Positions 11,735-35,901 of a DNA stretch of 64,000 nt are shown in pieces. The notes beneath the pieces were generated by a model. It saw only the letters and a list, made by a program, of their open reading frames with translations. It ran no database searches and was not told the DNA's origin. Made by a program: the position numbers and the translations under genes. This DNA comes from an uncultured Gammaproteobacteria bacterium (lineage in GTDB: Bacteria > Patescibacteriota > Patescibacteriia > Magasanikbacterales > GWA2-37-8). Every line of letters starts with the position of its first letter. Position 1 is the first letter of the stretch. Location: contig CAYHBZ010000001.1 of NCBI GenBank assembly GCA_964355175.1, positions 304,523 through 368,522 of the forward strand. Reading direction: 5' to 3'.

Positions 11735-11836
11735 TAAAAAAAGAGAATGATAAGCTCGGAAAAATTCCGAACTATTATTTGTTTTGTTGTTGAATAGACA
11801 GATTTTTAAATATATAAATTTTACTTTATATACTTA

Positions 11837-11864
11837 TGGTCTTTGTCACATTTATGTTGTCAAG
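11837..11864 (-). other. 5' half of the 16S rRNA processing stem
   Basis: This segment is complementary to 10075..10103 and lies in the leader between the predicted promoter and the 16S 5' end. Confidence 0.65.
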
Positions 11865-17954: not shown

Positions 17955-18005
17955 CAGCTCTGCTTTTCTATAATATCAAAATCCTGAAATTCGGTCAATC
18001 TTTTT

Positions 18006-18060
18006 GTCATCCCGAGCGATAGCGAGGGATCTTTAGATTCCTCATTATATTCGGAATGAC
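18006..18060 (-). repeat. Palindromic element copy A (intergenic, between rpsP and the KH gene)
   Basis: The sequence is gtcatcccgagcgatagcgagggatctttagattcctcattatattcggaatgac. The termini and the inner gagggatct/agattcctc segments are mutually complementary. It has the same architecture as copies B and C. Confidence 0.6.
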
Positions 18061-18066
18061 AGCGAA

Positions 18067-18381
18067 TTACGCAATTTTTTTCTTCTCGGCCAATTTAGTA
18101 GCGCGACGCTTACTGATAAATACTGATTTTTTTGTTTTGCCTTTTACCAATCCAGCTTTCAAAAACAAATTGTGCAAAGTTGGAGAGGCCTGAGCGCCTT
18201 TACCAATCCAGTAAGTAATTCTTTCGGCATTTGGCAAAAGTTGATTTTCTTTGGCGTGTGGATTGTAAGTACCAACCTGTTCCAAATAAGTACCCCAAGT
18301 ATCCTTGGTCTTTTCAGAAACGATAATGCGATATGTGGCAAATTTATTTTTACCAATACGCTGTAAACGAATTGCTAACAT
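18067..18381 (-). CDS. rpsP: 30S ribosomal protein S16
   Basis: MLAIRLQRIGKNKFATYRIIVSE...GTYNPH matches the S16 N-terminal signature. Confidence 0.9.
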   Translation of the reverse strand: MLAIRLQRIGKNKFATYRIIVSEKTKDTWGTYLEQVGTYNPHAKENQLLPNAERITYWIGKGAQASPTLHNLFLKAGLVKGKTKKSVFISKRRATKLAEKKKIA

Positions 18382-18464
18382 AGATTAATTTAATTTTTAT
18401 AAGAGTTTCTCTCATGACTTGTGAAGATCACGGAGAAGTTAAGAGCTGGCCTACTATACTATGT

Positions 18465-21400
18465 TTAGCTGGTTTTGTCAACATTTTCCTGGTCGGCGTA
18501 CTTCCCGATCTCGCCGATATTCACACTCAGTAGCTTGGAAACACCTTCGCCGCCCATAGTCACCCCGTAGAGCGCGTCGGCCGAGTGCATAGTGACGCGG
18601 TTGTGGGTAATCACGATAAATTGAGATTTGGCGGCCAATTCACTCATAATATTGGCAAAACGCAGAGTGTTGGCTTCATCGAGCGCCGCTTCAACTTCAT
18701 CCATTACTACAAATGGAGATGGGTTGCAGTTTAATATGGCGCAGATTAGCGCTATCGAGGTAAGGGTGCGTTCACCGCCCGACAGAGAGCTGATATTTTT
18801 TATTTTCTTACCGGGTGGGTTTACGATAATATCAATACCGGTAAGAATTTTATCGCGTTTTTTGTTTTTCAATACACCACCATTGTCATCCCCGTGAAAA
18901 CGGGGATCTTGGATTCCCGCTTCCGCGGGAATGACAGAGCCGTCGTTTGAAATGACATTACCATTGGCATCCAACATTTCTTCGCTTTCCGGTTCGCCAT
19001 AAATTTCTTCAAGCTGTGCTCCCCCACCATTAAATAATATTTGAAAATAACGATCAAATTCTTTGCGAATTTGTTTAAAGGCTTGTGAGCGTTTTTTCTT
19101 CATGATTTCGTCGAGTTCTTCGATCATCTTAGACAGATCCCCCACCGCTTTGGTCAAATCTTCCAGTTGACTGGAGAGAAAATCATAACGTTCTTTGGTG
19201 GTTTCGTATTCTTTCACTACTTCTTCATCAATACCACCAATCAAACTAAGCTGATATTTAAATTTAGAAATTGAATCCGCCACCTGATCCAGATCCACTT
19301 GAGAAAGCACACTATCCCAGCGTTCAGAGATACTCAAAAGCGAAGAACTGAGCTCATTATTGGCTTCATTATTTAGATCTTCATTTTTGGTTTCAATTTT
19401 AGCCAATTGAATCTTGAATTCATTGCGGCTACTCAGAATTTCATTAACTTCCGTCTGTTTTTTCTGCATTACTTCTTGCAAAGCAAACACGCGCTGTTTT
19501 TTAATTTCTTCCGCGTCATTAAAATTCTTTATTTCAGTAGCAATTTCCAAAATATCTTTCTCGCTGTTTTCAATTTCCGCTTTTACTTTATTTCTTTCCA
19601 CTTCCAAATCTTTCAGATGTTCGCCATACTCCTGCGGACTCATGCGAATAAAATTCAATTCTTTTTCCATCTGCACAAATTCGGCACTCTGCGAATCGCG
19701 CTGAGTGTGCAAAGCAATTAATTGATTTTGAGATTTTTCTTTTTCCATCTGGGCCAAAAGCTGGTCGGTCTTGGCTTTATCGAGTTGTATTTCTAAATCA
19801 CGGAAAATTTGTTCTTGTTTTATCAATTCTTCTTGATAATTAAAACCGGCATTTTCCGCAAAAGAAGTACTGCCGGAAAAACTCAAATGCATTCTTTTTT
19901 GTCCACGGAAACCACCTTTCATTACACCCCGTTTTTCCGCCACATCACCATCCAGAGTAACATAACGAATACGGCCGATACCCAAGCGTTGGGCCACAGC
20001 CAAATTTTTCACTATCAAGGTGTCGCCCAGGATAAATGAAAAAACATTACGAAATTTTTCATCAAATTTCACCAGATCAATCGCCAAACCAAATACGCCG
20101 TCTTCGTTTACTAGATTCTGGGCTTCGTAGCTTTCATTACGACCCACGATTTTATTAATCGGCAAAAAGGTGGCCACACCCATTTTTTCTTCACGCAAAA
20201 ATTCAATGGCGTTTTTGGCCACACTTTCATCAGCCACTACCAGCGATGATAAATTCGCGCCGGCGGCCACTTCCAGAGCGGTACGGTATTCATCCTGCAC
20301 TTCACCCAGCTCGGCCACCAGGCCATATACTTTTCCCAATCGATTTTTGTTTTCCAAAACTGAGCGTACGGCCGTAAGACCACTAAGCTCCAGATACTGA
20401 CGCTCGCTTTTTTGTTCAAATTGTTTGGTTTGCAATTGTGACAGACGCACCGCCGCCTGAGTTTTTTCGCGCGCCAAATCTTGCACCATCGCATTTTTTT
20501 GCGCGAACAATTTTTCCGCTTTCGAAATTTCCGCTTCAATGGACGCGCTATCACGATTTAATTTTTCTTTTTGAATCTGCAATTCCGCCACTTTATTTTC
20601 CAACCAACCGATATTTTGCTTGCCCAAATCACTATAGGCGTTTTGAATTTTGCCGGATAATATGGCCAACTCACGCTCCCAATCATTTTTAATTTTTACA
20701 GCCGCTTGATGTTTTTCTTGTAATTTTACAAACACTTCCTGACGACTTTCCGCGCGCGCCAAATCCGACAATTCATTCTGCACCGTTTCCAATTCTTTAA
20801 AAGCAATACGATAATTTTCATCCAATTCTTTTATGGTTTTATCCAGCTTATCCATCTCAGTTTTATTGCTCCAATATAGCGATCCATAGTATTTTTCTTG
20901 AGCTTCACGCAAATTTATTTCCACTTCATGGCGCTGTTCCAATTTACGGACCTGTTTGGAAAGCAGACGCAAACGCGGCTCTACTTCTTTGAGCAATGTA
21001 TCCACCTGCTTCATATTATCCTCTGTCCGCGCCAATTTCAGGCTGGCCTGGTGGTGTTTGATTTGATATTCCTTTATACCGGAAGCTTCATCCAAAAAAT
21101 CTTTACGCTCGGCTGGTGTCACCGTCAACATTTTGTCTATTGTCCCCTGACCGACTATACTATAAGAGTGCTGGCCAAACTGTGCCTTGGCAAGCAAAAG
21201 ATGGATATCCAGCATGCGCACCGGATTACTGTTTATGAGATACTCACCTTCGCCACTGCGATATAGACGGCGCGTAATCACCACTTCTTCGGCTTCAATA
21301 TCCGCGCGATTATCAGAATTATCGAGTACCATCGAAATTTCGCAAGCACCCAGTGCTCCGCGCGCTGCCGAGCCACCAAAAATAATATCTTCGCTCTTTT

Positions 21401-21593
21401 TACCACGCAAAGTTTTTAGGCTCTGTTCACCCATTACCCAGCGAATCGCATCCACCACATTGGATTTGCCCGAGCCGTTTGGCCCCACAATTGCAGTAAC
21501 ACTAAAACGACCGTCACGGGGCGGCAAAAAGTTTAATTTGGTCTTTTCAGCAAAGGATTTAAATCCCTGAATTTCTAAACTTTTGAGATACAT
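18465..21593 (-). CDS. smc: Chromosome segregation protein SMC
   Basis: MYLKSLEIQGFKSFAEKTKLNF...VGPNGSGKSNVVDAIRWV is the Walker A head. Long coiled coils and a hinge follow. The C-terminal head has LSGGERTLTSIAL and FVVMDEVEAALDE. The likely start is the ATG at 21593, because the ORF-track start at 21623 adds 10 non-conserved residues. Confidence 0.9.
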   Translation of the reverse strand: MYLKSLEIQGFKSFAEKTKLNFLPPRDGRFSVTAIVGPNGSGKSNVVDAIRWVMGEQSLKTLRGKKSEDIIFGGSAARGALGACEISMVLDNSDNRADIEAEEVVITRRLYRSGEGEYLINSNPVRMLDIHLLLAKAQFGQHSYSIVGQGTIDKMLTVTPAERKDFLDEASGIKEYQIKHHQASLKLARTEDNMKQVDTLLKEVEPRLRLLSKQVRKLEQRHEVEINLREAQEKYYGSLYWSNKTEMDKLDKTIKELDENYRIAFKELETVQNELSDLARAESRQEVFVKLQEKHQAAVKIKNDWERELAILSGKIQNAYSDLGKQNIGWLENKVAELQIQKEKLNRDSASIEAEISKAEKLFAQKNAMVQDLAREKTQAAVRLSQLQTKQFEQKSERQYLELSGLTAVRSVLENKNRLGKVYGLVAELGEVQDEYRTALEVAAGANLSSLVVADESVAKNAIEFLREEKMGVATFLPINKIVGRNESYEAQNLVNEDGVFGLAIDLVKFDEKFRNVFSFILGDTLIVKNLAVAQRLGIGRIRYVTLDGDVAEKRGVMKGGFRGQKRMHLSFSGSTSFAENAGFNYQEELIKQEQIFRDLEIQLDKAKTDQLLAQMEKEKSQNQLIALHTQRDSQSAEFVQMEKELNFIRMSPQEYGEHLKDLEVERNKVKAEIENSEKDILEIATEIKNFNDAEEIKKQRVFALQEVMQKKQTEVNEILSSRNEFKIQLAKIETKNEDLNNEANNELSSSLLSISERWDSVLSQVDLDQVADSISKFKYQLSLIGGIDEEVVKEYETTKERYDFLSSQLEDLTKAVGDLSKMIEELDEIMKKKRSQAFKQIRKEFDRYFQILFNGGGAQLEEIYGEPESEEMLDANGNVISNDGSVIPAEAGIQDPRFHGDDNGGVLKNKKRDKILTGIDIIVNPPGKKIKNISSLSGGERTLTSIALICAILNCNPSPFVVMDEVEAALDEANTLRFANIMSELAAKSQFIVITHNRVTMHSADALYGVTMGGEGVSKLLSVNIGEIGKYADQENVDKTS
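18885..18935 (-). repeat. Palindromic element copy B, inserted in frame inside smc
   Basis: The sequence is gtcatccccgtgaaaacggggatcttggattcccgcttccgcgggaatgac. It contains two hairpins (tccccgt/acgggga and attcccgc/gcgggaat). On the minus strand it is read as VIPAEAGIQDPRFHGDD within the SMC C-terminal head loop. Confidence 0.6.
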
Positions 21594-21628
21594 AATTATG
21601 CGGCTTATTATACCACAGCCCAATTATC

Positions 21629-21657
21629 TTGACAAAACCCCAAAATGGGGATATAAT
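21629..21657 (+). promoter_or_regulatory. Consensus sigma-70 promoter for nrnA
   Basis: TTGACA (21629-21634), a 17-nt spacer, then TATAAT (21652-21657). The ORF-track TTG start at 21629 is in fact this -35 hexamer. Confidence 0.6.
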
Positions 21658-21673
21658 CGCCTGTTCCTTATAT

Positions 21674-22630
21674 ATGAAGAAAATAGTTTTACAAATTCAC
21701 GATAAGATCAAAAACGCCAAAAATGTGGTTTTGATTCCGCATCAAAACGCCGATGGCGATGCCCTGGGATCGGCGGGCGCGCTTTTTGATTATCTCACTT
21801 CGCTTGGCATCCAAGTGCGTATTTTTTGTCTTACCCCTCTGAATCCCCGCCTGAGCTTTTTGCCGCATAGTGAAAAACTCACCACCGACCAAAGTATTTT
21901 TTTGGATAAAGAAATTGATTATATTATCGTAGTGGATTCCGGCGATCTGGAATATGCCGGCGTCCATAATTTGGTAAAAGATCATCCGGCCGAAATTATT
22001 AATATTGATCACCACCACACCAACAAACAATTTGGTACTCATAATTTAGTGATCCCCACCATGAGCTCTACCGCAGAAGTAATTTTTCATTTTCTGCGTC
22101 ATGTTCGCGCGCGCTTTACCCATCGTATTGCCACTGCCCTACTTACCGGCATCATCACCGACACCGATAATTTCACCAATGCCGCCACCTCCCAAAGCGC
22201 TATGGCCGCGGCCGGCGAACTGATTCGTCACGGTGGCAATTTGAATCTGATCAACACCCATACTGTCCGCAATAAATCCGTGAATCTCTTGCATTTATGG
22301 GGCGAAGTACTAAATCGCCTCCAAAAACACGAGGGTCTGGATATGGTCTATACCTATATCACCCAAGCCGATTTGGACAAACACCAAGTGAGCGAAAACG
22401 AAAGTGAAGGCATTGCCAATTTTCTCAACAACTTAGACGAAGGCAAGCTGGCCTTAATTCTCAAAGAAACAAAAGACGGAAAAATCAAAGGCAGTTTCCG
22501 TACCACTCGCGACGACACCGATGTCTCGGCGCTCGCCAAAAAAATGGGCGGCGGCGGACACAAAAAAGCGGCGGGATTTTCTACTACAGGTACAATTGAA
22601 GAAGTATTAGAAAAAATAATGGCTTTGTAA
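21674..22630 (+). CDS. nrnA: DHH/DHHA1 phosphoesterase (NrnA-like oligoribonuclease/pAp phosphatase)
   Basis: HQNADGDALGS, VVDSGD, NIDHHHTN, GIITDTDNF and GGGGHKKAAGF are the DHH and DHHA1 motifs. The start is placed at the ATG at 21674 (MKKIVLQ). Confidence 0.8.
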   Translation: MKKIVLQIHDKIKNAKNVVLIPHQNADGDALGSAGALFDYLTSLGIQVRIFCLTPLNPRLSFLPHSEKLTTDQSIFLDKEIDYIIVVDSGDLEYAGVHNLVKDHPAEIINIDHHHTNKQFGTHNLVIPTMSSTAEVIFHFLRHVRARFTHRIATALLTGIITDTDNFTNAATSQSAMAAAGELIRHGGNLNLINTHTVRNKSVNLLHLWGEVLNRLQKHEGLDMVYTYITQADLDKHQVSENESEGIANFLNNLDEGKLALILKETKDGKIKGSFRTTRDDTDVSALAKKMGGGGHKKAAGFSTTGTIEEVLEKIMAL

Positions 22631-22638
22631 TTTTTTGG

Positions 22639-22667
22639 TTGACCTGCGAGTATAATAATAGTAAAAT
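22639..22667 (+). promoter_or_regulatory. Putative clpP promoter
   Basis: TTGACC (22639-22644), a 17-nt spacer, then TAAAAT (22662-22667). Confidence 0.4.
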
Positions 22668-22670
22668 ATC

Positions 22671-22844
22671 AATAATACTTTCCATTCACTCACCTGTGAA
22701 AACACTCGGATAATTTGCAACCCGCCGAAGCTCTGGCTCTGAACTCGTCGCTTGGCTCCTCAAACAGCAGAGCCAGCCACGCTTCGTCGGCTCACAAATT
22801 ATTTCCTCGTGTTTTCAATGGTTCGTTCATTGGAAAATATTATT
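22671..22844 (+). repeat. 174-nt imperfect palindrome forming the predicted clpP 5' leader
   Basis: The left arm is aataatactttccattcactcacctgtgaaaacactcggataatttgcaacccgccgaagc. The reverse complement of the right arm is aataatattttccaatgaacgaaccattgaaaacacgaggaaataatttgtgagccgacgaagc. The central part has ctggctctg (22733-22741) paired with cagagccag (22768-22776). Confidence 0.55.
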
Positions 22845-22865
22845 TCTACATAATTAAAACATACT

Positions 22866-23462
22866 ATGAATAACGACATTAAATCCCAGATACTTATTCC
22901 GACCGTTATTGAAAAAACCAGCTACGGCGAACGTGCCTACGATATCTATTCTCGCTTGCTTATAGATCGCATTATCTTCCTCGGCCAAGCGATCGACGAT
23001 CATGTGGCCAATATTGTAATCGCTCAATTGTTATTCTTGGAAAATCAAGACCCTAGCAAAGATATCAAAATATATATCAATTCCCCAGGAGGATCTGTAT
23101 CCGCCGGCATGGCCATCTACGACACCATGAAATATATCAAAGCCGATGTATCTACTATTTGTATCGGCATGGCCGCCAGTATGGCCGCCGTCTTGCTCGC
23201 ATCTGGCGCCAAAGGCAAACGCATGATTCTGCCCAACGCTGAAGTGATGATTCACCAAGTAATGGGCGGCATGGAAGGCCAAGCCAGTGATATCAAAATC
23301 CACGCTGAACGGATCCTACGCATGAAACAATCTCTGAATAAAATTTTGGCTGAACACACTGGTCAAGATATAAAAAAAGTAGAACAAGACACCGACCGTG
23401 ATAATTTTATGATTGCCAAAGACGCCGTCGCTTACGGCCTAGTAGACAAAATTGTTGAATAA
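22866..23462 (+). CDS. clpP: ATP-dependent Clp protease proteolytic subunit
   Basis: [35 protein letters not shown] and [11 protein letters not shown] (catalytic Ser) together with MIHQ (catalytic His) identify ClpP. Confidence 0.95.
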
Positions 23463-23483
23463 TTAGCTATAATTAGCCAAAAA

Positions 23484-23507
23484 ATACCCAAAATTGGGTA
23501 TTTTTTG
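23484..23507 (+). terminator. Intrinsic terminator after clpP
   Basis: atacccaaaattgggtat forms a hairpin (23484-23501) that is followed by ttttt. Confidence 0.6.
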
Positions 23508-23517
23508 TTTTACCCCC

Positions 23518-23546
23518 TTGACAAGATCCTCATTCTATGCTATACT
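23518..23546 (+). promoter_or_regulatory. Consensus promoter with no downstream plus-strand ORF
   Basis: TTGACA (23518-23523), a 17-nt spacer, then TATACT (23541-23546). Confidence 0.6.
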
Positions 23547-23552
23547 TATGAG

Positions 23553-23803
23553 TTGCTAAAAGTGAAGCACCCCGATTCGTTCGGGAACAGGATAAATAAG
23601 CATAGCCGCCCCATAAGGGTATTAGGATCCAGGTCAGTGCAAATTATCGATTCACAACAAGTAAGTATAATTAGCACCGACCCGTATCCACTACAAGCAT
23701 GGGGATGTGTTGACGGATAGAACTGGCTTCGGCTCGTCTTCTCCCTTGACACATCTTCTTGGGTGCGGTTTCCGGGGAATTAATTTTCCCCACAAAAACA
23801 ACA
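23553..23803 (+). ncRNA. Candidate structured non-coding RNA of unknown class
   Basis: The region is bounded by a consensus promoter and a strong terminator. Internal hairpins include cccga/tcggg (23571-23585) and a 16-position stem at 23632-23647 / 23667-23682. Further pairs are gatgtgt/acacatc (23704-23710 / 23749-23755) and ggggaa/ttcccc (23774-23791). The region is more GC-rich than other intergenic DNA in the window. The two ORF-track ORFs here do not look protein-like. Confidence 0.4.
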
Positions 23804-23835
23804 CTGCCTACTTCAAAAAAGTAGGCAGTTTTTTT
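23804..23835. terminator. Bidirectional intrinsic terminator
   Basis: ctgcctac (23804-23811) pairs with gtaggcag (23821-23828). A T-run follows on the plus strand and a T-rich tract follows on the minus strand. It would serve both the ncRNA candidate and the VanW-like gene. Confidence 0.6.
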
Positions 23836-23854
23836 ATTTTTATTTAATTTATTA

Positions 23855-25846
23855 CTAATTGTTTATCGGCACTGGTTCGCTAGGTGTAGCTCCTTGAGCT
23901 TCTGTCGCACCAACCGCCGGAGCTGCACAAGTTTCGCCTGGTTTGCACTCTGGCACCGCGTCCACACCCACCATACAAATTTTTGGCAACGGTCGATAGT
24001 AGCTATCAAACACACGATCTATTTTTTCACCAGCTGGCGTAACTCTACTATAAGTAAAACTGGCCACCGCGCCGCGAAAAGCATTTTGACATTTTACTTC
24101 GCCAGGTTTTAATTTAGCACTTTTTATTTCTTGTGGCTCGCCCGATGGAATCCATTTTTTTACGAGCGGATGAGTGTACGACCCATTGCGACCATCCGGT
24201 TTACCCCAGAGCGTGAAGATAAGTTGTTGTTTTTTATAATCAATCTCGGTCTGCAACAACAAATAATGTCCGGTATCATTTTTAAATTTTAAATCGAGTG
24301 ACGGCTCATACAAAGTAGCATCGGTACCGGGATTGCCATTCACCGGATCGGAATAATACCCGACCACCAAAGAATGATTTTGACGTTGGGTAATATCCAT
24401 ACCAGAATTCATGGCCATACGGAAAAGAGTGGTACCGATCTGACACATACCACCACCTATTTCATTTTTTATTTCGTTTCCTTTAATCACCGCTTCCGGC
24501 AGAAAACCATTTTCCGCCGTAAACGGACCAGCATAGCGGATAGCGGAAAATTCTTCATCTGGTTTTATAAGCGCACCATTTAGACGTGCCACGGCGTGGG
24601 CGATATTTTTGATACGATTGGTATGGCTATCTTTAAAAGTAGAATATCCCACCCCTACCACTTCTTCAATACCAAGCTCATTGGCATTGGCCATTTTTAC
24701 TACCGGCTCCGCCACATCTACAGTAAGCGCTACGGTTTTATTGGCTTGAGCCGGATGATAATTTCTATCTTTAAAAGCGGCATTGAGATCAGCATAAGTT
24801 TTTTCAGCATTCAAAGTAAGACCCGTTTGACTGGCTTGAAATTCCTTGACTTTACCTTTTTCATCCACGGCAAATTTGGCATCTTGCGCCGATCTATCTA
24901 CTAGGGGGCGCAGGCTCTCCAAATAAGTTTTTACTTTTTCTTGATTTAAAATAAATATCGGCTGTTGATTTTCATCCTTGGTCACTTCAATCCAGCCGCC
25001 ATATTGCGCCAAGGTCAAAGGCCAATCACGACGAGCTTTGGTCTGCGGATCCACATAATTTAATCCTAGATCACCATATCCCAAAACAGCCGCTAAATTT
25101 TCACTGGCTTTTTGGGCGTCAGAAAATTTTATGGCCGGTTCAAATTGTTTGGCGGTGACCGGTATATTTCCGAGATAGAGCTGACTCAAATTTGTTTGAA
25201 TTTGTTCAATAATTTTTTCATACTCAAATTCCAGCCCAGACTGCTCGGACACCACCGAATAATTCAACGGTGAAAAAGAAGTAATAAAAATATTAGCGTT
25301 GCGCGGTTTGTCTACTTTGTCGTCCAGATTATCTTTAAGCAGGCTCATTAAATTTAGCCAGTCTACTTTTACCGGCACATTCAAATTAGTATTTTGAACA
25401 CGATAATACAGCGGTCCAAACAAACGCGCCGGCCAACTACCCCCGCGGCCAAGTCCGTAAGCCGCCTGCCACAAAGCATAGCTGTCCAGCTTCACCAATT
25501 CAGCTGCCTCGCCGCCGCTGGCGACAGTATCAATACGCAAAACGGTTTTTTTATCGTTCACATTCACATCCAAATTTATACCCTCTTTGGACAATCTATT
25601 GTTGGTAGTCTCAATAAAATTATTTAAATCAGAGCGTGTCATCGAGCCAAGATGATAATTTCCGGCATAAACTCCCGGATAAATTTTATCCTGATAAACT
25701 TTCAAATAAGTAGCCGTTGCCCCCGAAACCACACCAAGTACCGCGACCAAAACCAAAAAAAATACCGCGACTATTTTTAGCGGACGCTTCCAAGGTTTTG
25801 CCTCCACCGATTCGCTCGGAAAGGTCTGTTTGATATCTTCATTCAT
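23855..25846 (-). CDS. VanW-family membrane-anchored protein
   Basis: The protein has an N-terminal TM segment. GGGMCQIGTTLFRMAMNSGMDITQRQNHS matches the VanW core motif. The tail is Cys-containing. Confidence 0.65.
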   Translation of the reverse strand: MNEDIKQTFPSESVEAKPWKRPLKIVAVFFLVLVAVLGVVSGATATYLKVYQDKIYPGVYAGNYHLGSMTRSDLNNFIETTNNRLSKEGINLDVNVNDKKTVLRIDTVASGGEAAELVKLDSYALWQAAYGLGRGGSWPARLFGPLYYRVQNTNLNVPVKVDWLNLMSLLKDNLDDKVDKPRNANIFITSFSPLNYSVVSEQSGLEFEYEKIIEQIQTNLSQLYLGNIPVTAKQFEPAIKFSDAQKASENLAAVLGYGDLGLNYVDPQTKARRDWPLTLAQYGGWIEVTKDENQQPIFILNQEKVKTYLESLRPLVDRSAQDAKFAVDEKGKVKEFQASQTGLTLNAEKTYADLNAAFKDRNYHPAQANKTVALTVDVAEPVVKMANANELGIEEVVGVGYSTFKDSHTNRIKNIAHAVARLNGALIKPDEEFSAIRYAGPFTAENGFLPEAVIKGNEIKNEIGGGMCQIGTTLFRMAMNSGMDITQRQNHSLVVGYYSDPVNGNPGTDATLYEPSLDLKFKNDTGHYLLLQTEIDYKKQQLIFTLWGKPDGRNGSYTHPLVKKWIPSGEPQEIKSAKLKPGEVKCQNAFRGAVASFTYSRVTPAGEKIDRVFDSYYRPLPKICMVGVDAVPECKPGETCAAPAVGATEAQGATPSEPVPINN

Positions 25847-25848
25847 AA

Positions 25849-26301: not shown

Positions 26302-26352
26302 ATTTCAAAAAAACAAAAATCGGCGACCAAAGCCAAATTTGCTAATTTTGCA

Positions 26353-28203: not shown

Positions 28204-28221
28204 TAGTTTAAAAGTTTCAGG

Positions 28222-28641
28222 CTATTGTGCACAAGAACGAGCCAATAAATAATCGTTGGCCGTCGGCTCGGCGCCATTTTTAATTTCATTGGCGCGCTTC
28301 TCGCCCAATTTGGCATAGAAACACGCTTCCATAGCCGGAGTAATTTGAGTCGGCAACTTCGCCGGATCAATACCCACTTTCTCCAGCGCTTGTTCTTGGG
28401 CCGGAGATAACATCGGATTCTTGTCTACTGCCGCATTGTTTGTATTTTTTGTCGTAGAGGCTGGTTGTCCATATGAATTTTGAAGCAAAGGTTTGATACC
28501 ATATGGATCGGCCACATACAGATAAATACCCGCAATGATTAGGAGAAAGAAAATGATTCCCAGAATCATAAAAAATATTTGCAGAAATTTTTTCATATAA
28601 TTTTGATTTAAATATATTACCAGATTTATTGTATCACCCAT
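28222..28641 (-). CDS. Small membrane-anchored protein of unknown function
   Basis: The ORF has one clear TM segment (FLQIFFMILGIIFFLLIIAGIYLYV). The likely start is the internal MKKF. Confidence 0.5.
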   Translation of the reverse strand: MGDTINLVIYLNQNYMKKFLQIFFMILGIIFFLLIIAGIYLYVADPYGIKPLLQNSYGQPASTTKNTNNAAVDKNPMLSPAQEQALEKVGIDPAKLPTQITPAMEACFYAKLGEKRANEIKNGAEPTANDYLLARSCAQ

Positions 28642-28688
28642 CTATAACAAAAGCAAAAAGCGAGCTATTAACTCACTTTTCACGTCCG

Positions 28689-28779
28689 CGGAGAGGCAGG
28701 GATTTGAACCCTGGATGCAGTTTTAAAGCTGCATAACACATTAGCAGTGTGCCGCTTTCGACCACTCAGCCACCTCTCC
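28689..28779 (-). tRNA. tRNA-Ser (anticodon GCU), class II with a long variable arm
   Basis: The reverse complement is GGAGAGGTGGCTGAGTGGTCGAAAGCGGCACACTGCTAATGTGTTATGCAGCTTTAAAACTGCATCCAGGGTTCAAATCCCTGCCTCTCCG. The anticodon loop is CTGCTAA. Confidence 0.9.
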
Positions 28780-28861
28780 AAAATATGTAAATTGTGCTAT
28801 AATTGTACCAGAAAAATAAAAATAGTCAACCCATCTGCAATTATCAACTTAGCTATTGATT

Positions 28862-30445
28862 ATGAAAAAAATACTTTTTTGGCTGTTATTGGTACTAAAT
28901 TTAGTCTATCCGCTGACCATTATATCCAATACCCTAGACGGTGATTTCGGTTGGCATCTGCGTTTTGGACAGGATATCCACACGCAGAGCTCTTTTCCCT
29001 ACCTCGATACCTACACCTATACAAAATATGGCGAACCTTGGACCAATCACGAGTGGGGCGGCGACTGGATTATTTACCAGGTTTATTCTCATCTAGGATA
29101 CTTCTGGATCAATATCATCGTGGCACTGGCCGGCGCTCTCGCTTTTTGGATTATCGGCAAAGCATTTATTAAAAAACCTGGAGTTTCTTTTTTGTTTTTT
29201 GCTCTGGCCTGCCAGATGGCCGTGTACCATATTTTCGCGCCACGTCTGGCGATGTTTTCGCAATTATTTGCCGCTTTGATTATTTTAATAATTGAAAAAT
29301 ATTCCTCCCGTCCGCGCGCGCTATACCTGATACCGTTTATTATCTGGCTGTGGTCCGTTTTGCACGGTAGCTGGATTTTGGGCTTTATTATTATGAATAT
29401 TTATTTGGGTTGTGCCGTGCTTCCATATATTGTGGGCCAAAAATACCAAAAATATTTTAATGAAGAAAAAAAGCCGCTTACTTTTATTTATCAGCTAATA
29501 GGGATTCAATTGCTGGCGGCAGTGCTAATTATAATCAATCCCTACGGCATAAAAATTTGGCAAGAAATCTTTCAGTATTTTGGACAAAATTACTACAAAG
29601 CCCACATTAGCGAATGGACACCGAGCTATGCTTATCCGGTGTTTCCAAAAATTTTGATTTTGCAGACCATTACCTTAGTATTGGTAATATACGGCTTTAT
29701 CAAACGCAAAGTAAAATTTACTTACCTGACTTTTTTCCTGGCCTTTTTTTACGCGGCCATGATGTACAAACGCCAAGCGATTTTTACCGCCCTGCTTTCC
29801 GCCCCAATATTATATTATACCGCCACTTTTATGCGGGAACAGATGACCAATTTAAAATTTTATAACTTTTTTATAAAACAAAAAGAAAAATTCTATTTTG
29901 TCGGAATAATTATCACGATACTTTTGATAATATTCTATGCCCGCCAAATGCACTATACCGATGATCCTTGGAATGACAAAATTCTTTCCTATAATAACGC
30001 TCCGCCCTACGAAGCGACCATATTTTTACAAAACTATACCGCGGGAAAATCAATAAAATTATTCAATGAATTCAGTTGGGGTGGATTTTTAAATTGGATG
30101 TTGCCAAATGCTCTGGTATATCTGGACGGCCGCGGCAGTGCCACCTGGATGCACGACAAAAATACCAGCATGCTACAACACTATATCGAACTCAAAGAAG
30201 AAGATAATGCCGTAAAAATAATTGAAGATACCGGGGCGGACTATATCATGTTACGCTATCCCAAATTTGTCATTAGCGGCATTCCCAGCTTCGCCGACCG
30301 ACATTTATTTGGTGATAATTTCAAAGAATATTTCGTGAATCATGAAGAAAAACTGAGGGAGAAAATTGACAATAGCGGTCACTGGAAAAAAATATATTCA
30401 GACAATCGCGCTAACATCTGGCAAAAAATTAATCCCGCGCCATAA
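28862..30445 (+). CDS. Polytopic integral membrane protein, possibly a GT-C-type glycosyltransferase
   Basis: More than 10 hydrophobic segments are followed by a soluble C-terminal domain. The start is placed at the ATG at 28862 (MKKILF). The functional call is only a guess based on architecture. Confidence 0.6.
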   Translation: MKKILFWLLLVLNLVYPLTIISNTLDGDFGWHLRFGQDIHTQSSFPYLDTYTYTKYGEPWTNHEWGGDWIIYQVYSHLGYFWINIIVALAGALAFWIIGKAFIKKPGVSFLFFALACQMAVYHIFAPRLAMFSQLFAALIILIIEKYSSRPRALYLIPFIIWLWSVLHGSWILGFIIMNIYLGCAVLPYIVGQKYQKYFNEEKKPLTFIYQLIGIQLLAAVLIIINPYGIKIWQEIFQYFGQNYYKAHISEWTPSYAYPVFPKILILQTITLVLVIYGFIKRKVKFTYLTFFLAFFYAAMMYKRQAIFTALLSAPILYYTATFMREQMTNLKFYNFFIKQKEKFYFVGIIITILLIIFYARQMHYTDDPWNDKILSYNNAPPYEATIFLQNYTAGKSIKLFNEFSWGGFLNWMLPNALVYLDGRGSATWMHDKNTSMLQHYIELKEEDNAVKIIEDTGADYIMLRYPKFVISGIPSFADRHLFGDNFKEYFVNHEEKLREKIDNSGHWKKIYSDNRANIWQKINPAP

Positions 30446-31157
30446 CCAGTCCATACACTTTTTGCGCTCCGGCGGATTTTAATACACGCGCACACTCCTG
30501 CATCGTGGCCCCGCTCGTGAAAACATCATCCACCAAAATAATATTTTTAGAGAGCGCGTCACGACCTTGCCAAACAAAAGCGCCATTTAGATTGGACAGG
30601 CGCTCAGCTCGATTTAATTTGGCTTGCTGTTTGGTAAATTTTATTCTCTGTAAATTGAGATCATCCAACTGAATACCCGGATGATCTTTTTTTAATACTT
30701 GAAAAATATTTTGCGCGATTAATTGCGCCTGATTGAATCCGCGCTCACGCCGACGCCGGCTATGTAGCGGCACGGGCACAAGTGTGGCATCACAGCTAGG
30801 CAGATTACCGGCTTGCCAAATAGTATTCAAAAATTCTGTCGTGATTTGAAGCCAAAGATTATTGATATCCGTAACTAGATTATACTTAAATTTTTTTATC
30901 AATCCACTCACCGCTCTATTATTTTGATAATTAAAAAAGGCGGCCACAGCTTCTAGACTGCTGGCCGCCTGACAATTGAGACAATTTTTGCCGTTTAAAT
31001 TTTTCAGATGACAAACTGGACAATAAAATTCTCCGCCGTTAAAACTTTGTATTATACAACTATCACACCACCACACACCCTCTTGATCGCAGCCCAAACA
31101 AAATATCGGAAACAAACAATCCTTTATAAATTGCACTAGCTCCCCTCCCCTAAACAT
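30429..31157 (-). CDS. comFC: ComF-family competence protein (ComFC, phosphoribosyltransferase domain)
   Basis: N-terminal Cys clusters are present (CLGCDQEG..C, CPVCH...CLNC). RGFNQAQLIA and ILVDDVFTSGATMQECARVLKSAGA form the PRTase motif. The start lies 4 nt after the upstream stop. Confidence 0.8.
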   Translation of the reverse strand: MFRGGELVQFIKDCLFPIFCLGCDQEGVWWCDSCIIQSFNGGEFYCPVCHLKNLNGKNCLNCQAASSLEAVAAFFNYQNNRAVSGLIKKFKYNLVTDINNLWLQITTEFLNTIWQAGNLPSCDATLVPVPLHSRRRRERGFNQAQLIAQNIFQVLKKDHPGIQLDDLNLQRIKFTKQQAKLNRAERLSNLNGAFVWQGRDALSKNIILVDDVFTSGATMQECARVLKSAGAQKVYGLVMARD

Positions 31158-31160
31158 ATT

Positions 31161-31757
31161 TTATTTTACCATTGTAAAATTATCTACAAACCAAGTGTCG
31201 CCACTTTTTACCAAGCTCACTTTGGCCTGAGCGTCTTTTTGAGTAATCACTCCGCCTTTTTCTTCAGTAATTTTTACCTGCAAATCTACCGTCGCGCTGA
31301 CATCAGTCCAAGCGGATATTTTGGCGCTATAGGCCTCCACACTCACGGCATAAAAATTTGGACTATTAGCGGGAATATTAGCCGGAATTTTGGCACTTAA
31401 TTGTTTCCAGTAGCTGTCGGTGGCCAAACTTTCCACATCCATCATATTCTGATAGCGGCTTTCCGAAGAATATGAATTCAATCTTTCCACGAAAATTTTA
31501 GCAAAATTTTGAGCGGCCTTTTGCTGAGTTTCCAAAGTGCTGGTTTTTGGCACATTTACATTCTGTAGATTGGTGACTGGCAAAGTGGTGCCGGCAGGAT
31601 TACTTTCAGAGTCGCCAGGCAATACTGTATTACCAGCATTATCTACTGCCGGAGCATTTTTATTTTTGGAGCGCACATACAAAAATATACTGACACCCAA
31701 AATAAATAATACGATTAAACTAACTACGATAAAAATACGGGCGCGTAATGACATCAT
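31161..31757 (-). CDS. Bitopic membrane protein with a C-terminal alpha+beta domain, possibly VirB8-like (NTF2-like)
   Basis: A single N-terminal TM segment (IFIVVSLIVLFILGVSIFLYV) is followed by a low-complexity linker and a globular domain of about 120 aa. The gene lies immediately downstream of VirB4. The VirB8 assignment rests only on architecture and context. Confidence 0.5.
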   Translation of the reverse strand: MMSLRARIFIVVSLIVLFILGVSIFLYVRSKNKNAPAVDNAGNTVLPGDSESNPAGTTLPVTNLQNVNVPKTSTLETQQKAAQNFAKIFVERLNSYSSESRYQNMMDVESLATDSYWKQLSAKIPANIPANSPNFYAVSVEAYSAKISAWTDVSATVDLQVKITEEKGGVITQKDAQAKVSLVKSGDTWFVDNFTMVK

Positions 31758-31766
31758 ACAAAATTA

Positions 31767-33635
31767 TTATTTAGTTTGATTTTCAAATTCTTGTTTGGCG
31801 CGTTCGATCTCAAGCAACTGCTGCGGGTTGGTGGTCACCAGCTGATCTTCGGTATACGAAGCCACGATCTTGATAGCGGCATGTTTGAGACCGGCAAAAA
31901 ATATTCCTTCACCCGGAGCACTCTCCAACAATAAATATTTTTCACTATCCGTAAGCATGAAAACTTTTTGAATGTTGTCCACGGCGGCCGGAGATTGGCG
32001 GAGCAACAATTGCAAAGCCGAATTGGTCACAATCGCCTGTCCGTATTGGGAATGCAAGAAATCATTTACATCCTGCGTAATAGTCGTGACACCCAAATAA
32101 TATTTACGACAGCGTTTCACCAAAGCAAAAATAAATCTGGCGGAATCTTCGTGTTGCATCAGCCACCAGGCTTCATCAATTACGAGCACGCGCTTGCGAC
32201 GCTCGGAGCGCACCGTGTTCCAAATATAATTGATAATCGCGTAAATAGCGAGCGGACGCAATTCATCTTCCAAATCACGCACACTATACACCACCAACTG
32301 ATTTTTCATTTCCACATTGGTTGGCGAATTGAATAGTCCACTAAAAGTACCTTCGGTATATTTTTTCAATTTTAATACCAATTCGTTCGAGCCTTCCATA
32401 CCTTCGAGCACTTCCTGCAAATCTTGCATGATTGGCGCTTCGACAGTATTGAGATCCACACCGGATACGATATCTTTTTTGGCGTAAGTTTCGATGAGCG
32501 CTCTATCGATTACCGAATCCTGCTCAGTAGTAATACCACCAAGCATAATACGGAGTAATCCTTTCACAGTAATAACCGCGCTACGAATAATATCGTCGAC
32601 AGACAAATCCTGCTCCATTGGGCGAGGCAGATCAAATGGATTTACTTTACTCTCACTGCTCAAAGAAATATTAATATAAGTACCACCGACCGCGTCAGAG
32701 AGATGTTTATATTCCATTTCCGGATCAATCACAATCACTTCCAGGCCCATCATGAGAGAGCGCAAAATTTCCAATTTAATGGCATAGCTTTTACCGGCAC
32801 CGGAAGTAGCAAATACTACCATATTGGCATTCTGCATCGAAAAACGATCAAACAAAATCAAACTATTGTTGTGACGATTGATTCCGTACAAGATACCATT
32901 ATCGGAAGTAAGCTCGGCAGAAATAAATGGAAAAGACGCGGCAATCGGCGATGAATTCATGTTGTAGGAAATCATCAATTCATCATTGCACAGCGGCAAA
33001 GTAGAATTAAAACCTTGCTCAGCTTGATACAATACTTTGCGACTCATGATCAATTTACTGCCAAAAATACTTTCGATATCTTCGGATAACTGATCCAATT
33101 TTTCTTTATTTTTGGTATAAATAGTGACATAAAAAGCAAACTGAAAAAAGTGCTCTGTCCCCTGGGTTAGATTGTCGCGCAAGCCTTCAATATCACGCAA
33201 AGCGGTCTCACGAATTGGATCACGCGGCGCGCCCTTTTCGGCATCGGCGCTAATCTGCGCTTCGAGCGCACCTACTTTATTTTTTAATTGTTTCAAAATA
33301 ATTTCGGCTTTAATCGGATAAAAGAACATTGAAATATCCATATTCACCGACAAACCAATCACGGGAGAGCTCCAACCCACGGAAATATAACGCGGATAAT
33401 TCATGATGAAAAGCGTACGACAAAAAGTGGTGCCAAGCTGGATAAAATTGGACTCAATATTAAAAGCCGCCGGCGCGATAATATCACGCAACGACACCAC
33501 GCCCTCACGATAGACCTGCTCTTCTTGCAGAGTAATGAGTTCGGCAGCGGTAGCTTTTTCTAACTTGCTTTTATCTTTACTACCCAAACTCGCTTTATCG
33601 TTTTGTTTGGCAATGAATTGTGGTTTAAAGGCCAT
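31767..33635 (-). CDS. virB4: VirB4/TraC/PrgJ-family T4SS ATPase, C-terminal 622-aa part
   Basis: DIIAPAAFNIESNFIQLG..FCRTLFIMNYPRYISVGW is the VirB4 middle domain. VVFATSGAGKSYAIKLE is Walker A and RVLVIDEAWWLM is Walker B. TQDVNDF is also present. Confidence 0.85.
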   Translation of the reverse strand: MAFKPQFIAKQNDKASLGSKDKSKLEKATAAELITLQEEQVYREGVVSLRDIIAPAAFNIESNFIQLGTTFCRTLFIMNYPRYISVGWSSPVIGLSVNMDISMFFYPIKAEIILKQLKNKVGALEAQISADAEKGAPRDPIRETALRDIEGLRDNLTQGTEHFFQFAFYVTIYTKNKEKLDQLSEDIESIFGSKLIMSRKVLYQAEQGFNSTLPLCNDELMISYNMNSSPIAASFPFISAELTSDNGILYGINRHNNSLILFDRFSMQNANMVVFATSGAGKSYAIKLEILRSLMMGLEVIVIDPEMEYKHLSDAVGGTYINISLSSESKVNPFDLPRPMEQDLSVDDIIRSAVITVKGLLRIMLGGITTEQDSVIDRALIETYAKKDIVSGVDLNTVEAPIMQDLQEVLEGMEGSNELVLKLKKYTEGTFSGLFNSPTNVEMKNQLVVYSVRDLEDELRPLAIYAIINYIWNTVRSERRKRVLVIDEAWWLMQHEDSARFIFALVKRCRKYYLGVTTITQDVNDFLHSQYGQAIVTNSALQLLLRQSPAAVDNIQKVFMLTDSEKYLLLESAPGEGIFFAGLKHAAIKIVASYTEDQLVTTNPQQLLEIERAKQEFENQTK

Positions 33636-33638
33636 ATT

Positions 33639-34325
33639 TTATTCTTGTTCAATTTGCATCTTATCCATTGGCGCCATACGCTCGGTGAGAGCGATATCGG
33701 GATTATAAGTAGAGTACAATACTTCTACCAGAGACTGAGTGTCGAGGCGCACCACTTCCAGACCAATTCCGCGCAAACCAGACTCTACTTGGCGCACACG
33801 CTGATCTAAATCATATTTGCGTTTGGTGAATCTTTCCGCTTTTAGTTTTACCGTCACGGCCGGATGAAAAACTTCGCTCAAACGCGCCCAAAAACTTTTT
33901 TGTTTATTGGACAAAGGATCATAAGGCACCACTACATAAAAATTTTTGCTCATAATCTCCCCCATCTCGACAAGCTCCGACACAAAAGATCGATAGTCGG
34001 CAATCTGCGCGCGCAACAATTCATTGGTCTGTTCGCGCTCGCGTTTGAGCAAATCTTCCAGGTACGGCTTGATATATAATTCACGCGACTGAATTACCAC
34101 CTGCAAAGGGTGGTCCAAACCGTTGAGAAAACTCACATAAGCGGATACGATAGCGTTTTGTTCGTCTTCATTTTTCAAAGCAAAATTAATGCTCGATACT
34201 AACATTATAGCACGCATCGTGCCATCTTTCATCACCACGGTATCCTGTCTGATTTCTGAAACAGACAAAAATCTTTGGGCGGATGGTATGCTGGTTTTTT
34301 TTGCTGCCGCTTTTTTATTCTTCAT
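33639..34325 (-). CDS. VirB4 N-terminal segment encoded as a separate 228-aa ORF
   Basis: DTVVMKDGTMRAIMLVSSINFALKNEDEQNAIVSAYVSFLNGLDHPLQVVIQS follows, as I recall it, the N-terminal pattern of Gram-positive VirB4 proteins (Tn916 Orf16/PrgJ type). It is separated from the 622-aa ORF by TAA-AAT-ATG in the same frame. Confidence 0.55.
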   Translation of the reverse strand: MKNKKAAAKKTSIPSAQRFLSVSEIRQDTVVMKDGTMRAIMLVSSINFALKNEDEQNAIVSAYVSFLNGLDHPLQVVIQSRELYIKPYLEDLLKREREQTNELLRAQIADYRSFVSELVEMGEIMSKNFYVVVPYDPLSNKQKSFWARLSEVFHPAVTVKLKAERFTKRKYDLDQRVRQVESGLRGIGLEVVRLDTQSLVEVLYSTYNPDIALTERMAPMDKMQIEQE

Positions 34326-34331
34326 ATAAAA

Positions 34332-34784
34332 TTAATCTTCCGGTTTATAATAACCGCCGGTATTTACCGCCAAGGCCAAATCGCGCAGACGGTTATAGGA
34401 TAAATTTGGCACCTCCGCGATCTTTTCTACTAGCACCACCGTTTCCATTTTGCGCAATTGTTCCAATTCTTCTTTGGTGTCCATTTTATACCAGATGCGT
34501 CGACTCGGTCGGCGCAGTGTCTGAAACAAATTCAATAAAAAATAATGAAAAGACTGTCCGTTGATTTTTACAAAAGCCAAGATCAGAGAAAAGCTACCTA
34601 GAGTGGCTAGAGAGAAAATGAACAAAGCCATGTCCGCCAATTTAAAAGTAATAAATAAAATCAGTCCGGCAATTAGCAAGATCAAAAACTGACGCGTAGT
34701 CACCGGTCCAAAAATTTTATCCTCAACGTCAATAAATTGTGGCACTACAAACTGTTCCATATTAAATAGCCAACTCTTTTTCAA
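34332..34784 (-). CDS. PrgI-family (VirB3-like) small membrane protein
   Basis: VPQFIDVEDKIFGPVTTRQFLILLIAGLILFITF followed by a second TM segment is the PrgI-family pattern. The gene lies directly upstream of VirB4, as in Gram-positive T4SS loci. The likely start is the internal MEQF. Confidence 0.6.
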   Translation of the reverse strand: MKKSWLFNMEQFVVPQFIDVEDKIFGPVTTRQFLILLIAGLILFITFKLADMALFIFSLATLGSFSLILAFVKINGQSFHYFLLNLFQTLRRPSRRIWYKMDTKEELEQLRKMETVVLVEKIAEVPNLSYNRLRDLALAVNTGGYYKPED

Positions 34785-35901
34785 AATTAATTAAAGCTTC
34801 AATTTCCGCTAAAGAAATTTTATCTCTTTCTCCCAGCACTCCGGATAGTGGTCGTCTCTGCTCTATCGCCTCATCCACCGCGCTAATATAAGATTGATAC
34901 AGAGGACTATTATGCCAAGCGTCCCAGGATTTCATAAACAGCAGATAGGATTCTTCTTTCAAGTTCAAAAATTTTTGTTTCAGGCGCTCAGCGGCATCGA
35001 CCGGCTTGGAAGACAGGCGGCGAAAATCTACCAGATTGAAAAATTGAATCTCGTCGAGAGGCCCCATGGCCATCGGTTTGCTATGCACATCGTGCATCAT
35101 CGCTCTAGGAGTCACCGAAGCCGCGCGCATTGGCGCAATATTTTGGGCCGGTTTCTGCTCTGTTTTTTTTGCGATCAAATCTTCGATCGGCGCCGAAGCT
35201 ACGCCGGCACTGAAAATAATTTTATCTACAATATTTTCTTTCACTTCCTTTTTTTCTACTTTCGGCAAGTAAGTGGTTGGTTTGGATTTTTCGGTCAATT
35301 CTCTAGCCTGAGTTTCAGTCAATCCCAATCCACCGTCTTTTATAGAACGGCCACAAGCATCCAGAGTATCAGGTTCACTGCGAATATCTTTTAGACGGAG
35401 CTGAACGACACTACGCAAGCGACTATCAATTTGAGGTGAAACTTTAAATGATAAACTGGAAATGATTTTGGAAACTTGATCGGTGCGATTGGATGCTACG
35501 GTAGTTTTGGCATGTTCACTGTCTGGGACTTCTTCATGGAGCAATGATTTCAAATCTTCATTTTTCAAAACTGGCTTTCCTGGCACTTTTTTATCGTCAT
35601 CCTGAGCGACTTTATTGTCATCCCGAACGGATGTGAGGGATCTTTCCGGCCTGTTAGATTCCTCGCTTACACTCGGAATGACAGTATTCACCTTTGGAAC
35701 GACAGGTGCTAAAACAGGCTTCACAGGTGCGGACACAGGCACAGCCGGTGTTGGCGCCACTGGTGTCGGTGCAACTGTTGGTACAGCCACTGTCGGTGTA
35801 GACGCGCCGGCCTGGCGTTTTTTTATTTCAGTCAAAGAAACCCTCTCGGTCGTGCCGTCGGATTTTTTTACCGTAATCATGATTTGATTATTGTCTGGCA
35901 T
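34762..35901 (-). CDS. Hypothetical protein (379 aa) with a Pro/Val/Ala-rich segment and an embedded palindromic element
   Basis: The ORF is part of the operon and its ends overlap or abut the neighbouring genes. The repeat-derived peptide VIPSVSEESNRPERSLTSVRDDNKVAQDDD is embedded in it. I recognise no domain. Confidence 0.6.
   Translation of the reverse strand: MPDNNQIMITVKKSDGTTERVSLTEIKKRQAGASTPTVAVPTVAPTPVAPTPAVPVSAPVKPVLAPVVPKVNTVIPSVSEESNRPERSLTSVRDDNKVAQDDDKKVPGKPVLKNEDLKSLLHEEVPDSEHAKTTVASNRTDQVSKIISSLSFKVSPQIDSRLRSVVQLRLKDIRSEPDTLDACGRSIKDGGLGLTETQARELTEKSKPTTYLPKVEKKEVKENIVDKIIFSAGVASAPIEDLIAKKTEQKPAQNIAPMRAASVTPRAMMHDVHSKPMAMGPLDEIQFFNLVDFRRLSSKPVDAAERLKQKFLNLKEESYLLFMKSWDAWHNSPLYQSYISAVDEAIEQRRPLSGVLGERDKISLAEIEALINFEKELAI
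35596..35682 (-). repeat. Palindromic element copy C (35617-35682) plus an adjacent half-copy (35596-35610), in frame within the 379-aa ORF
   Basis: The full copy is gtcatcccgaacggatgtgagggatctttccggcctgttagattcctcgcttacactcggaatgac. The half-copy gtcatcctgagcgac matches the left arm of copy A at 13 of 15 positions. Confidence 0.6.

Follow-up and report, generated by a model that had tools for sequence, protein, structure and literature searches.

Paired TGTC-tagged palindromic repeats within and between genes of a Magasanikbacteria genome

Introduction

How do short palindromic elements come to lie in frame within otherwise conserved genes, and to what kind of repeat do they belong? The question is raised by a 64,000-nt stretch of DNA (hereafter the window) from an uncultured bacterium placed by GTDB in the Magasanikbacterales of the Patescibacteriota (GenBank assembly GCA_964355175.1, contig CAYHBZ010000001.1, positions 304,523 to 368,522), in which a preliminary description noted three such elements, here called copies A, B and C. 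We find that the elements are members of a known and widespread superfamily of hairpin repeats, present here in Magasanikbacteria, and are not a new kind of element. In our preferred reading, to which we assign a probability of about 0.75, the three copies are pan-bacterial CGTC/TGTC-tagged palindromic repeats, a group that takes in the CGTC-type repetitive extragenic palindromic (REP) sequences, dRS3/NTS, the Rickettsia palindromic elements RPE-6 and RPE-4 and the 'Ssn-related motifs', arranged in pairs with their tags outside. Such elements would be non-coding, non-autonomous DNA that is gained and lost over short evolutionary time.

Three tagged dimers in the window

The pattern GTCATCCC-N(20-50)-GGAATGAC has exactly three matches in the window, on the plus strand at 18006-18060, 18885-18935 and 35617-35682, and none in 100 dinucleotide-preserving shuffles, which bears out the original claim of three copies with common termini and inner boxes. 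One more base is conserved at each end (TGTC...GACA), extending the spans to 18005-18061, 18884-18936 and 35616-35683 and giving elements of 53-68 bp with the form TGTCATYCC…GGRATGACA. Every copy (3/3) consists of two units in opposite orientation with the TGTC tags outermost, an arrangement that we refer to as a dimer, and the copies fall into two structural subfamilies. A generic repeat finder did not recover the family in the window, because its copies differ by indels. Three copies are a small number, and on that account one might argue that there is no repeat family and that the likeness is due to chance or to ordinary conserved coding sequence; given the empty shuffles, the homologues that lack the segments and the hundreds of related copies elsewhere, described below, we discount this explanation almost entirely. 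The elements and the two genes that host them are as follows.

18005..18061, minus strand: copy A, a subfamily-2 dimer, intergenic; exact pattern match, absent from four related lineages
18884..18936, minus strand: copy B, a subfamily-1 dimer in smc; exact pattern match, twin 8-bp hairpins
35616..35683, minus strand: copy C, a subfamily-2 dimer with a 14-nt spacer, in the open reading frame (ORF) 34762-35901; exact pattern match, absent from the 32 closest homologues
35595..35610, plus strand: truncated single unit CGTCATCCTGAGCGAC, 5 nt from copy C
18465..21593, minus strand: smc, host of copy B; SMC Pfam domains in its homologues
34762..35901, minus strand: ORF of 379 aa, host of copy C; no Pfam domain

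Read on the minus strand, copies A, B and C follow the plan TGTCATTCC...GGAATC - spacer - GATCCC...GGGATGACA, with both inner boxes, GGAATC and GATCCC, present in 3/3. The tag TGTC opens all six units of the three copies, and the truncated unit begins with CGTC. The C that follows the stem is invariant, at the start of tails that read CCA after the left unit of copy B and CTA, CTT or CAA-like elsewhere. Copy B belongs to subfamily 1, with the consensus TGTCATTCCCGCGAAAGCGGGAATC / GATCCCCGTTTTCACGGGGATGAC; its left unit reads TGTC-ATTCCCGC-GGAA-GCGGGAAT-CCA and its right unit, on the other strand, TGTC-ATCCCCGT-GAAA-ACGGGGAT-C. Copies A and C make up subfamily 2, with the consensus TGTCATTCCGAGCGCAGCGAGGAATC / GATCCCTCGCTGCGCTCGGGATGAC and units of the form TGTCATTCCGAGCG...CGAGGAATC; on the minus strand copy A reads TGTCATTCCGAATATAATGAGGAATC-TAAA-GATCCCTCGCTATCGCTCGGGATGACA. 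Both consensus pairs recur in other genomes.

The two subfamilies differ in how they fold. It had been proposed that each copy can form a long hairpin or a twin hairpin, and the twin form stands for copy B alone: as single-stranded DNA (ssDNA) it folds into twin hairpins (-17.5 kcal/mol, z = -5.65), in each of which the TGTC is left unpaired and a stem of 8 bp that begins with AT closes a loop of 4 nt. In single units of copies A and C the stem is limited to the outer 5 bp (ATTCC/GGAAT or ATCCC/GGGAT), and shuffled sequences fold just as well. In these copies the left unit pairs with the right unit to give one long imperfect hairpin (z = -2.8 for A and -1.9 for C).

Two further hairpins came out of a loose ATYCC...GGRAT scan and were rejected as members, both being without the tag: one at 7173-7192 is terminator-like and adjoins tRNA-Ile, and the other, at 10200-10221, is the 3' end of the 16S rRNA.

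Relation to known repeat systems

CGTC-tagged REPs carry a CGTC tag, often TGTC, followed by a stem of 8-9 bp that starts with AT and whose first two pairs are A-T, a loop of 4-5 nt and a CCA tail (Di Nocera, De Gregorio and Rocco 2013, BMC Genomics 14:522; PMC3733652). They are mostly paired with the tags outside ('HH dimers') and lie mostly in intergenic DNA downstream of genes, near the 3' ends of these, with a minority in frame; CGTC-1 is the same repeat as Neisseria dRS3 and Rickettsia conorii RPE-6, and CGTC-4 the same as RPE-4 (PMC3733652). The supplement to that study lists the in-frame peptides VIPAKAGI, SFPRKRES and DSRFRGND together with the dimer SIPAKAGIQTGPSMDSRLRGNA (PMC3733652).

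Copy B agrees with CGTC-1 in its tag, 8-bp AT stem, 4-nt loop, CCA tail, HH dimer arrangement and VIPAKAGI-type peptide, and the published in-frame peptides of the superfamily (VIPAKAGI, SIPAKAGIQ...DSRLRGNA) match those of the window copies. It departs from CGTC-1, for which the paper describes mainly pairs of identical units, in that its dimer joins two unlike units, one with an ATTCC and one with an ATCCC stem; Patescibacteria are also not among the five host phyla given there. Copies A and C share the tag, the outer 5 bp, the tail and the pairing with CGTC REPs but differ from them in the stem, which is not of 8-9 bp, and in the loop, which is not of 4-5 nt. The likeness to Rickettsia palindromic elements drawn in the preliminary description proves closer than an analogy, as RPE-4 and RPE-6 are in the same CGTC superfamily (PMC3733652). 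The classical RPE-1 (~100-150 bp; Ogata et al. 2000, 2002, as cited in PMC3733652) is likewise palindromic and in frame at permissive positions of functional genes, but it is longer and forms a separate sequence family.

The Neisseria repeat NTS, CGTCATTCCCGCGMAVGCGGGAATCYRG, is bound and cut only as ssDNA by Ssn, a GIY-YIG protein of 94 aa (PMC11893778; Nat Commun 2025;16:2388). The ssn gene is itself flanked by the repeat, and the identity of the loop is dispensable for cutting (PMC11893778). Together, NTS and Ssn lower transformation by DNA carrying the repeat in Neisseria (PMC11893778). We found the left unit of copy B to be identical to the NTS consensus at 25 of 28 positions (3 mismatches), and its right unit to match the published degenerate expression for the Ssn-related motif (SRM), for which 0.09 matches are expected by chance. 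Copies A and C, of subfamily 2, match neither the NTS consensus nor the SRM expression. The Ssn paper makes no mention of Patescibacteria or of in-frame copies (PMC11893778).

REPIN/RAYT systems, built from GTAG REPs, also consist of hairpin units in inverted pairs, leave no target-site duplication and include a small dedicated gene with the repeat on its flanks. They are unlike the present elements in their tag, GTAG as against TGTC, and in their partner, an HUH/Y1 enzyme as against a GIY-YIG protein; Pfam scans of the large ORFs found no RAYT or Y1/HUH gene in the window. The QMITE elements of Coxiella were considered and set aside as unrelated and GTAG-type.

Distribution across bacteria

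We scanned one genome per species with a query consisting only of the left unit plus GATCCC. Matches were obtained at no fewer than 120 loci, in many classes of Patescibacteria and in Rickettsiales, Omnitrophota, Gemmatimonadota, Acidobacteriota, Nitrospirota, Elusimicrobia, delta- and gammaproteobacteria and others. Among the 129 matches listed, 75 end in GGRATGAC at the right distance, an end that was not part of the query, and the two-unit architecture with tags outside is found in 75 or more dimers of other genomes. The right unit of copy B recurs, identical, in metagenome-assembled genomes (MAGs) labelled Magasanikiibacteriota, Saccharimonadales, Deltaproteobacteria and Planctomycetales. 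The window has three dimers and one fragment in 64 kb, and a related MAG (L125; loci carry L numbers and proteins P numbers) has about 17 units in 17.5 kb. The elements have many further copies in relatives and far beyond, and homologues of both host proteins exist without the segments. The literature that we searched yielded no description of CGTC/NTS-type repeats in Patescibacteria, and a search of it with the peptide strings of the elements returned nothing.

Copy A and its empty site

Copy A is intergenic, as first described. It begins 5 nt past the rpsP stop codon (18067-18069) and ends 6 nt short of a promoter-like site of a KH-domain gene, whose -35 box lies at 17998-17993. The copy is missing from the same spacer in four related lineages, L003, L221, L001 and L220 (SMC identity 94, 91, 91 and 75%, respectively), in all of which the stop codon, promoter-like site and leader align cleanly around the empty site. 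The converse also occurs: the smc-rpsP spacer of L001 contains one single unit, where the window and L003 have none. Neither of these two clean filled-versus-empty sites shows a target-site duplication.

Presence/absence polymorphism of this kind is also expected of classical miniature inverted-repeat transposable elements (MITEs), in which terminal inverted repeats of ~26 bp would be recognised as double-stranded DNA by the DDE-type transposase of a related insertion sequence. This could apply to subfamily 2 especially, as in each of copies A and C one unit is nearly the reverse complement of the other and neither folds singly, which is the MITE layout. Against it stand the missing target-site duplications, the length of the elements, which at 53-68 bp fall below the 70-300 bp range quoted for bacterial MITEs, and their termini, where they share the TGTCATYC tags of the hairpin units. 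Moreover, no transposase gene was found in the window or related loci, and clustering of neighbour genes revealed no recurrent gene near subfamily-2 units. We consider a MITE origin improbable.

A role at the RNA level might alternatively keep the elements in place, as hairpins that end or stabilise transcripts 3' of genes or as structures that slow translation within genes, with spread being secondary. The position of copy A, 5 nt past a stop codon and between genes on the same strand, is the commonest one for REPs (PMC3733652), and the copies form strong RNA folds (-25 to -36 kcal/mol, z = -3 to -5.8). However, neither strand is consistently the more stable, no run of T follows the copy A hairpin on the sense strand, and none of copies A-C has an Rfam match. 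Copy A is also missing from four relatives in which the spacer is otherwise conserved, and it is therefore not needed there. An RNA-level role thus appears very improbable as the reason for the elements' presence.

In the spacer that separates rpsP from the KH-domain gene, the minus strand has at 17925-17998 a promoter-like sequence (TTGACC-17-TATTAT, the -10 being preceded by TG) and after it a leader of ~35 nt, GCAGAGCTGGTGGAA(1-3 nt)CTCCACAYGTCGACAG, which is conserved in five lineages, one of them with an SMC just 75% identical. The leader has 1-nt indels and is therefore not coding; Rfam holds no match for it. It may have a regulatory role for the KH gene.

Copy B in the SMC head

Copy B is translated in frame within smc as VIPAEAGIQDPRFHGDD (in the context ...SVIPAEAGIQDPRFHGDDNGG...), exactly as had been reported. 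It lies in a lineage-specific loop of ~50 residues in the C-terminal head of SMC, between ...GGGAQLEEIYGE and KILTGIDIIVNPPGKK; in the head structures of Bacillus subtilis SMC (5h66, 3zgx) just 4 residues link the two segments that flank the loop. Across 60 homologues the loop is hypervariable in both length and sequence, and the element-type peptides found in 7 of 120 SMC homologues always lie within it. Source names of the SMC homologues include Candidatus Magasanikbacteria and Patescibacteria, which marks the window as DNA of a Candidate Phyla Radiation bacterium.

Close relatives carry different contents at this position. The loop of L001 (91% SMC identity) holds the same dimer as copy B, plus 18 nt in one hairpin loop; that of L003 (94%, protein P0001) has a single subfamily-2 unit at the copy B position; L221 (91%) shows no clear element; and L220 (75%) holds a dimer that shares its 24-nt right unit, letter for letter, with the window copy. 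These states do not follow a neighbour-joining SMC tree built with the loop removed, so that several gains, losses or replacements are needed.

Spread without any transposition would offer one account of this pattern: once foreign DNA is taken up, gene conversion or homologous recombination would carry the repeats between loci and lineages, with the repeats acting as short patches of homology, a role proposed in the dRS3 literature. The occupancy of the SMC loop, which is empty or filled by a dimer of subfamily 1 or a unit of subfamily 2 in disagreement with the SMC tree, speaks for it, as does the identity of the 24-nt right unit between the window, L220 and MAGs of other phyla. But recombination needs a pre-existing copy and so cannot explain first arrivals; copy A and the single unit of L001 have collinear flanks and an intact empty site. 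We see only a very slim chance that recombination accounts for the elements.

In L001, two units (12665-12707 and 20507-20553) have extra DNA inside an enlarged hairpin loop, 18 nt in the one within smc and ~22 nt in the other. Such loop-enlarged units fit the published observation that the nuclease does not need the loop for recognition.

Copy C at the secretion locus

The 379-aa ORF that hosts copy C stands directly upstream of a PrgI-family gene (34332-34784) and of split VirB4/TraC-like ATPase genes (33639-34325 and 31767-33635), in agreement with the preliminary placement of copy C in a gene of a type IV secretion system operon. The translation given there is also correct: copy C reads VIPSVSEESNRPERSLTSVRDD, and the ORF ...VIPSVSEESNRPERSLTSVRDDNKVAQDDD.... 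The segment sits in a Pro/Val/Ala-rich linker of variable length and is missing from 32 of the 32 closest homologues (79-44% identity). Element-type peptides occur in about 6 of 117 homologues of the ORF, within its linker, and in the Magasanikbacteria MAG L125 (protein P0146) the corresponding linker has received two independent dimers. A target-site duplication is not definable at copy C, where the DNA alignment to L124 is too diverged.

The 'half-copy' reported beside copy C is a truncated unit, CGTCATCCTGAGCGAC, with the minus-strand translation VAQDDD; it matches the first ~14 nt of the full L125 units TGTCATCCTGAGCAGAGCGAAGGATC and CGTCATCCTGAGTGAAACGAAGGATC.

At the same locus, the VirB4/TraC-like ATPase is encoded by two adjacent ORFs (31767-34325), one of 228 aa with the TraC-like N-terminal part and one of 622 aa with the P-loop. 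The same split is seen in L125, and it is therefore probably real rather than a sequencing error.

Survival of copies in coding sequence

The earlier reading of in-frame insertion into otherwise conserved genes is upheld for two of the three copies, and relatives without the inserts exist. Between their GTC...GAC ends, copies B and C measure 51 and 66 nt, both multiples of three, and by hand translation five of the six reading frames of the canonical unit are open. Insertion in genes is nevertheless not the rule for the family: 26% of 90 dimers in other genomes are inside frames that run for 150 or more codons from stop to stop, compared to 72% of random positions, from which we conclude that the family is mainly intergenic, with a filtered minority in genes. 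About half of the dimers in long frames have lengths that are not multiples of three, and these are unlikely to be real coding sequence.

Both coding copies lie in indel-rich variable linkers. A genic copy would survive only where three things coincide: a length that is a multiple of three, a frame free of stops and a linker that tolerates it. Together these would explain a 51-nt copy in a surface loop of SMC and a 66-nt copy in a low-complexity linker of the secretion-locus ORF.

A candidate nuclease partner

What spreads such units? At the Omnitrophota locus L007, a gene for a 97-aa GIY-YIG protein (Pfam E = 9e-17) is flanked by these dimers. Among 80 metagenome loci with GIY-YIG relatives of the L007 type, 77 have a unit no more than 150 nt from the gene and 53 have one on each side of it; of the 196 units at these loci, 85% are that close to the gene. 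Seven of the loci have units identical to the left unit of copy B. One, L188, shares with the window the pair formed by KsgA and its neighbour gene (43% and 33% identity), a likeness that hints that L188 may come from a genome like those of the Candidate Phyla Radiation (CPR). This unit-gene-unit layout of subfamily-1 units around small single-domain GIY-YIG genes matches the published Ssn/NTS system. Searches of NCBIfam and PDB sequences with the L007-type protein returned no specific family, and its membership of cd10448 was not confirmed.

By this comparison, hairpin units of the copy B type may be recognised as ssDNA by an Ssn-type GIY-YIG nuclease that is encoded elsewhere in the genome or was formerly present; we hold this step tentatively, at somewhat less than even odds. 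An enzyme of this type, with its unit-gene-unit cassette, would be the source both of the spread of the hairpin units and of their sequence conservation.

Several observations weigh against this proposal. Neither a motif expression nor phmmer found a GIY-YIG gene within the window or across ~150 kb of DNA from related Magasanikbacteria, nor was a transposase, a tyrosine transposase included, found in the same DNA (in the window, by Pfam scans); the large ORFs of the window give just housekeeping genes and large surface-type proteins in these scans. Subfamily 2 accounts for 4 of 196 units at the GIY-YIG loci, most of them doubtful, versus 99 of 322 in general loci. The small GIY-YIG genes of named CPR genomes (L113, P0248, P0337) are bracketed by a different inverted repeat. 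Finally, Ssn has been shown to cut DNA and not to move repeats (PMC11893778). With no GIY-YIG gene in the window or the related DNA, we can only infer the enzyme step for this host, and it is unsupported for copies A and C. Subfamily 2 may have a protein partner of its own that is yet to be described.

The GIY-YIG genes of named CPR genomes (L113 type; P0248, P0279, P0337) were tried as partners and rejected: they are single-copy, are accompanied by the different inverted repeat and lend no support to a link. In L113 (1950-2270), L134 (1470-1790) and L136 (1470-1790) the small CPR gene is bracketed by the inverted repeat CCGGGTAGTGAAAnTTnGA ... TCnAAnTTCTACTACCCGG and therefore sits inside a long hairpin; this repeat and its gene may be another pairing of nuclease and motif.

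We also observed a Bro-N domain protein in L001 (2334-3161) that appears to be missing from the corresponding place in the window. A homologue of it, 63% identical (L144 3492-4271), lies ~1.2 kb from a GIY-YIG gene flanked by units on a metagenome contig.

A possible import from outside

The repeats might instead reach these tiny-genome bacteria from outside and spread without a resident nuclease. This possibility draws on the copy B units that recur, identical, in MAGs of unrelated phyla and in a Magasanikbacteria lineage with SMC identity of just 75%, and on the SMC loop and the secretion-locus linker having been occupied several times independently. The element would cross phylum borders, for example by DNA uptake, and home to a small number of sites that are permissive or similar to the tag; a likeness to the TGTCATT tag is seen in the native codons AATGTCATT. 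Decayed copies would over time build up the long acidic loops and linkers of host proteins. We regard import without a nuclease as unlikely, and retain the reading of the copies as tagged repeats of the CGTC/TGTC superfamily.

Other features of the window

The window contains a lone 16S rRNA gene (10186-11741) with no 23S gene. It is bracketed by a 25-nt inverted repeat (10075-10099 and 11840-11864; 92% complementary), which is probably a processing stem. Genes for tRNA-Ile and tRNA-Val lie ~3 kb from the 16S gene, with two protein-coding genes between. A strong hairpin at 43019-43074, with 26-nt arms (88% complementary) and a 4-nt loop, occupies a stretch without a convincing gene. Four ORFs are very large.

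12920-17338: ORF of 1472 aa with internal repeats of 222-nt period
37993-42189: ORF of 1398 aa, no Pfam match
43756-51705: ORF of 2649 aa, no Pfam match
55996-62847: ORF of 2283 aa with PKD repeats

Implications

The peptide strings VIPxxAGIQ, RFxGDD, VIPSxSEES, SLxxxRDD and AQDDD derive from the repeat and should not be taken for conserved protein motifs; short ORFs composed of such peptides are probably spurious. Our results extend the CGTC/NTS hairpin repeats to the Candidate Phyla Radiation, where they enter essential genes such as smc at permissive loops. CPR bacteria are thought to rely heavily on DNA uptake, and in Neisseria the repeat and its nuclease restrict transforming DNA, which raises the possibility of a functional link between the two.

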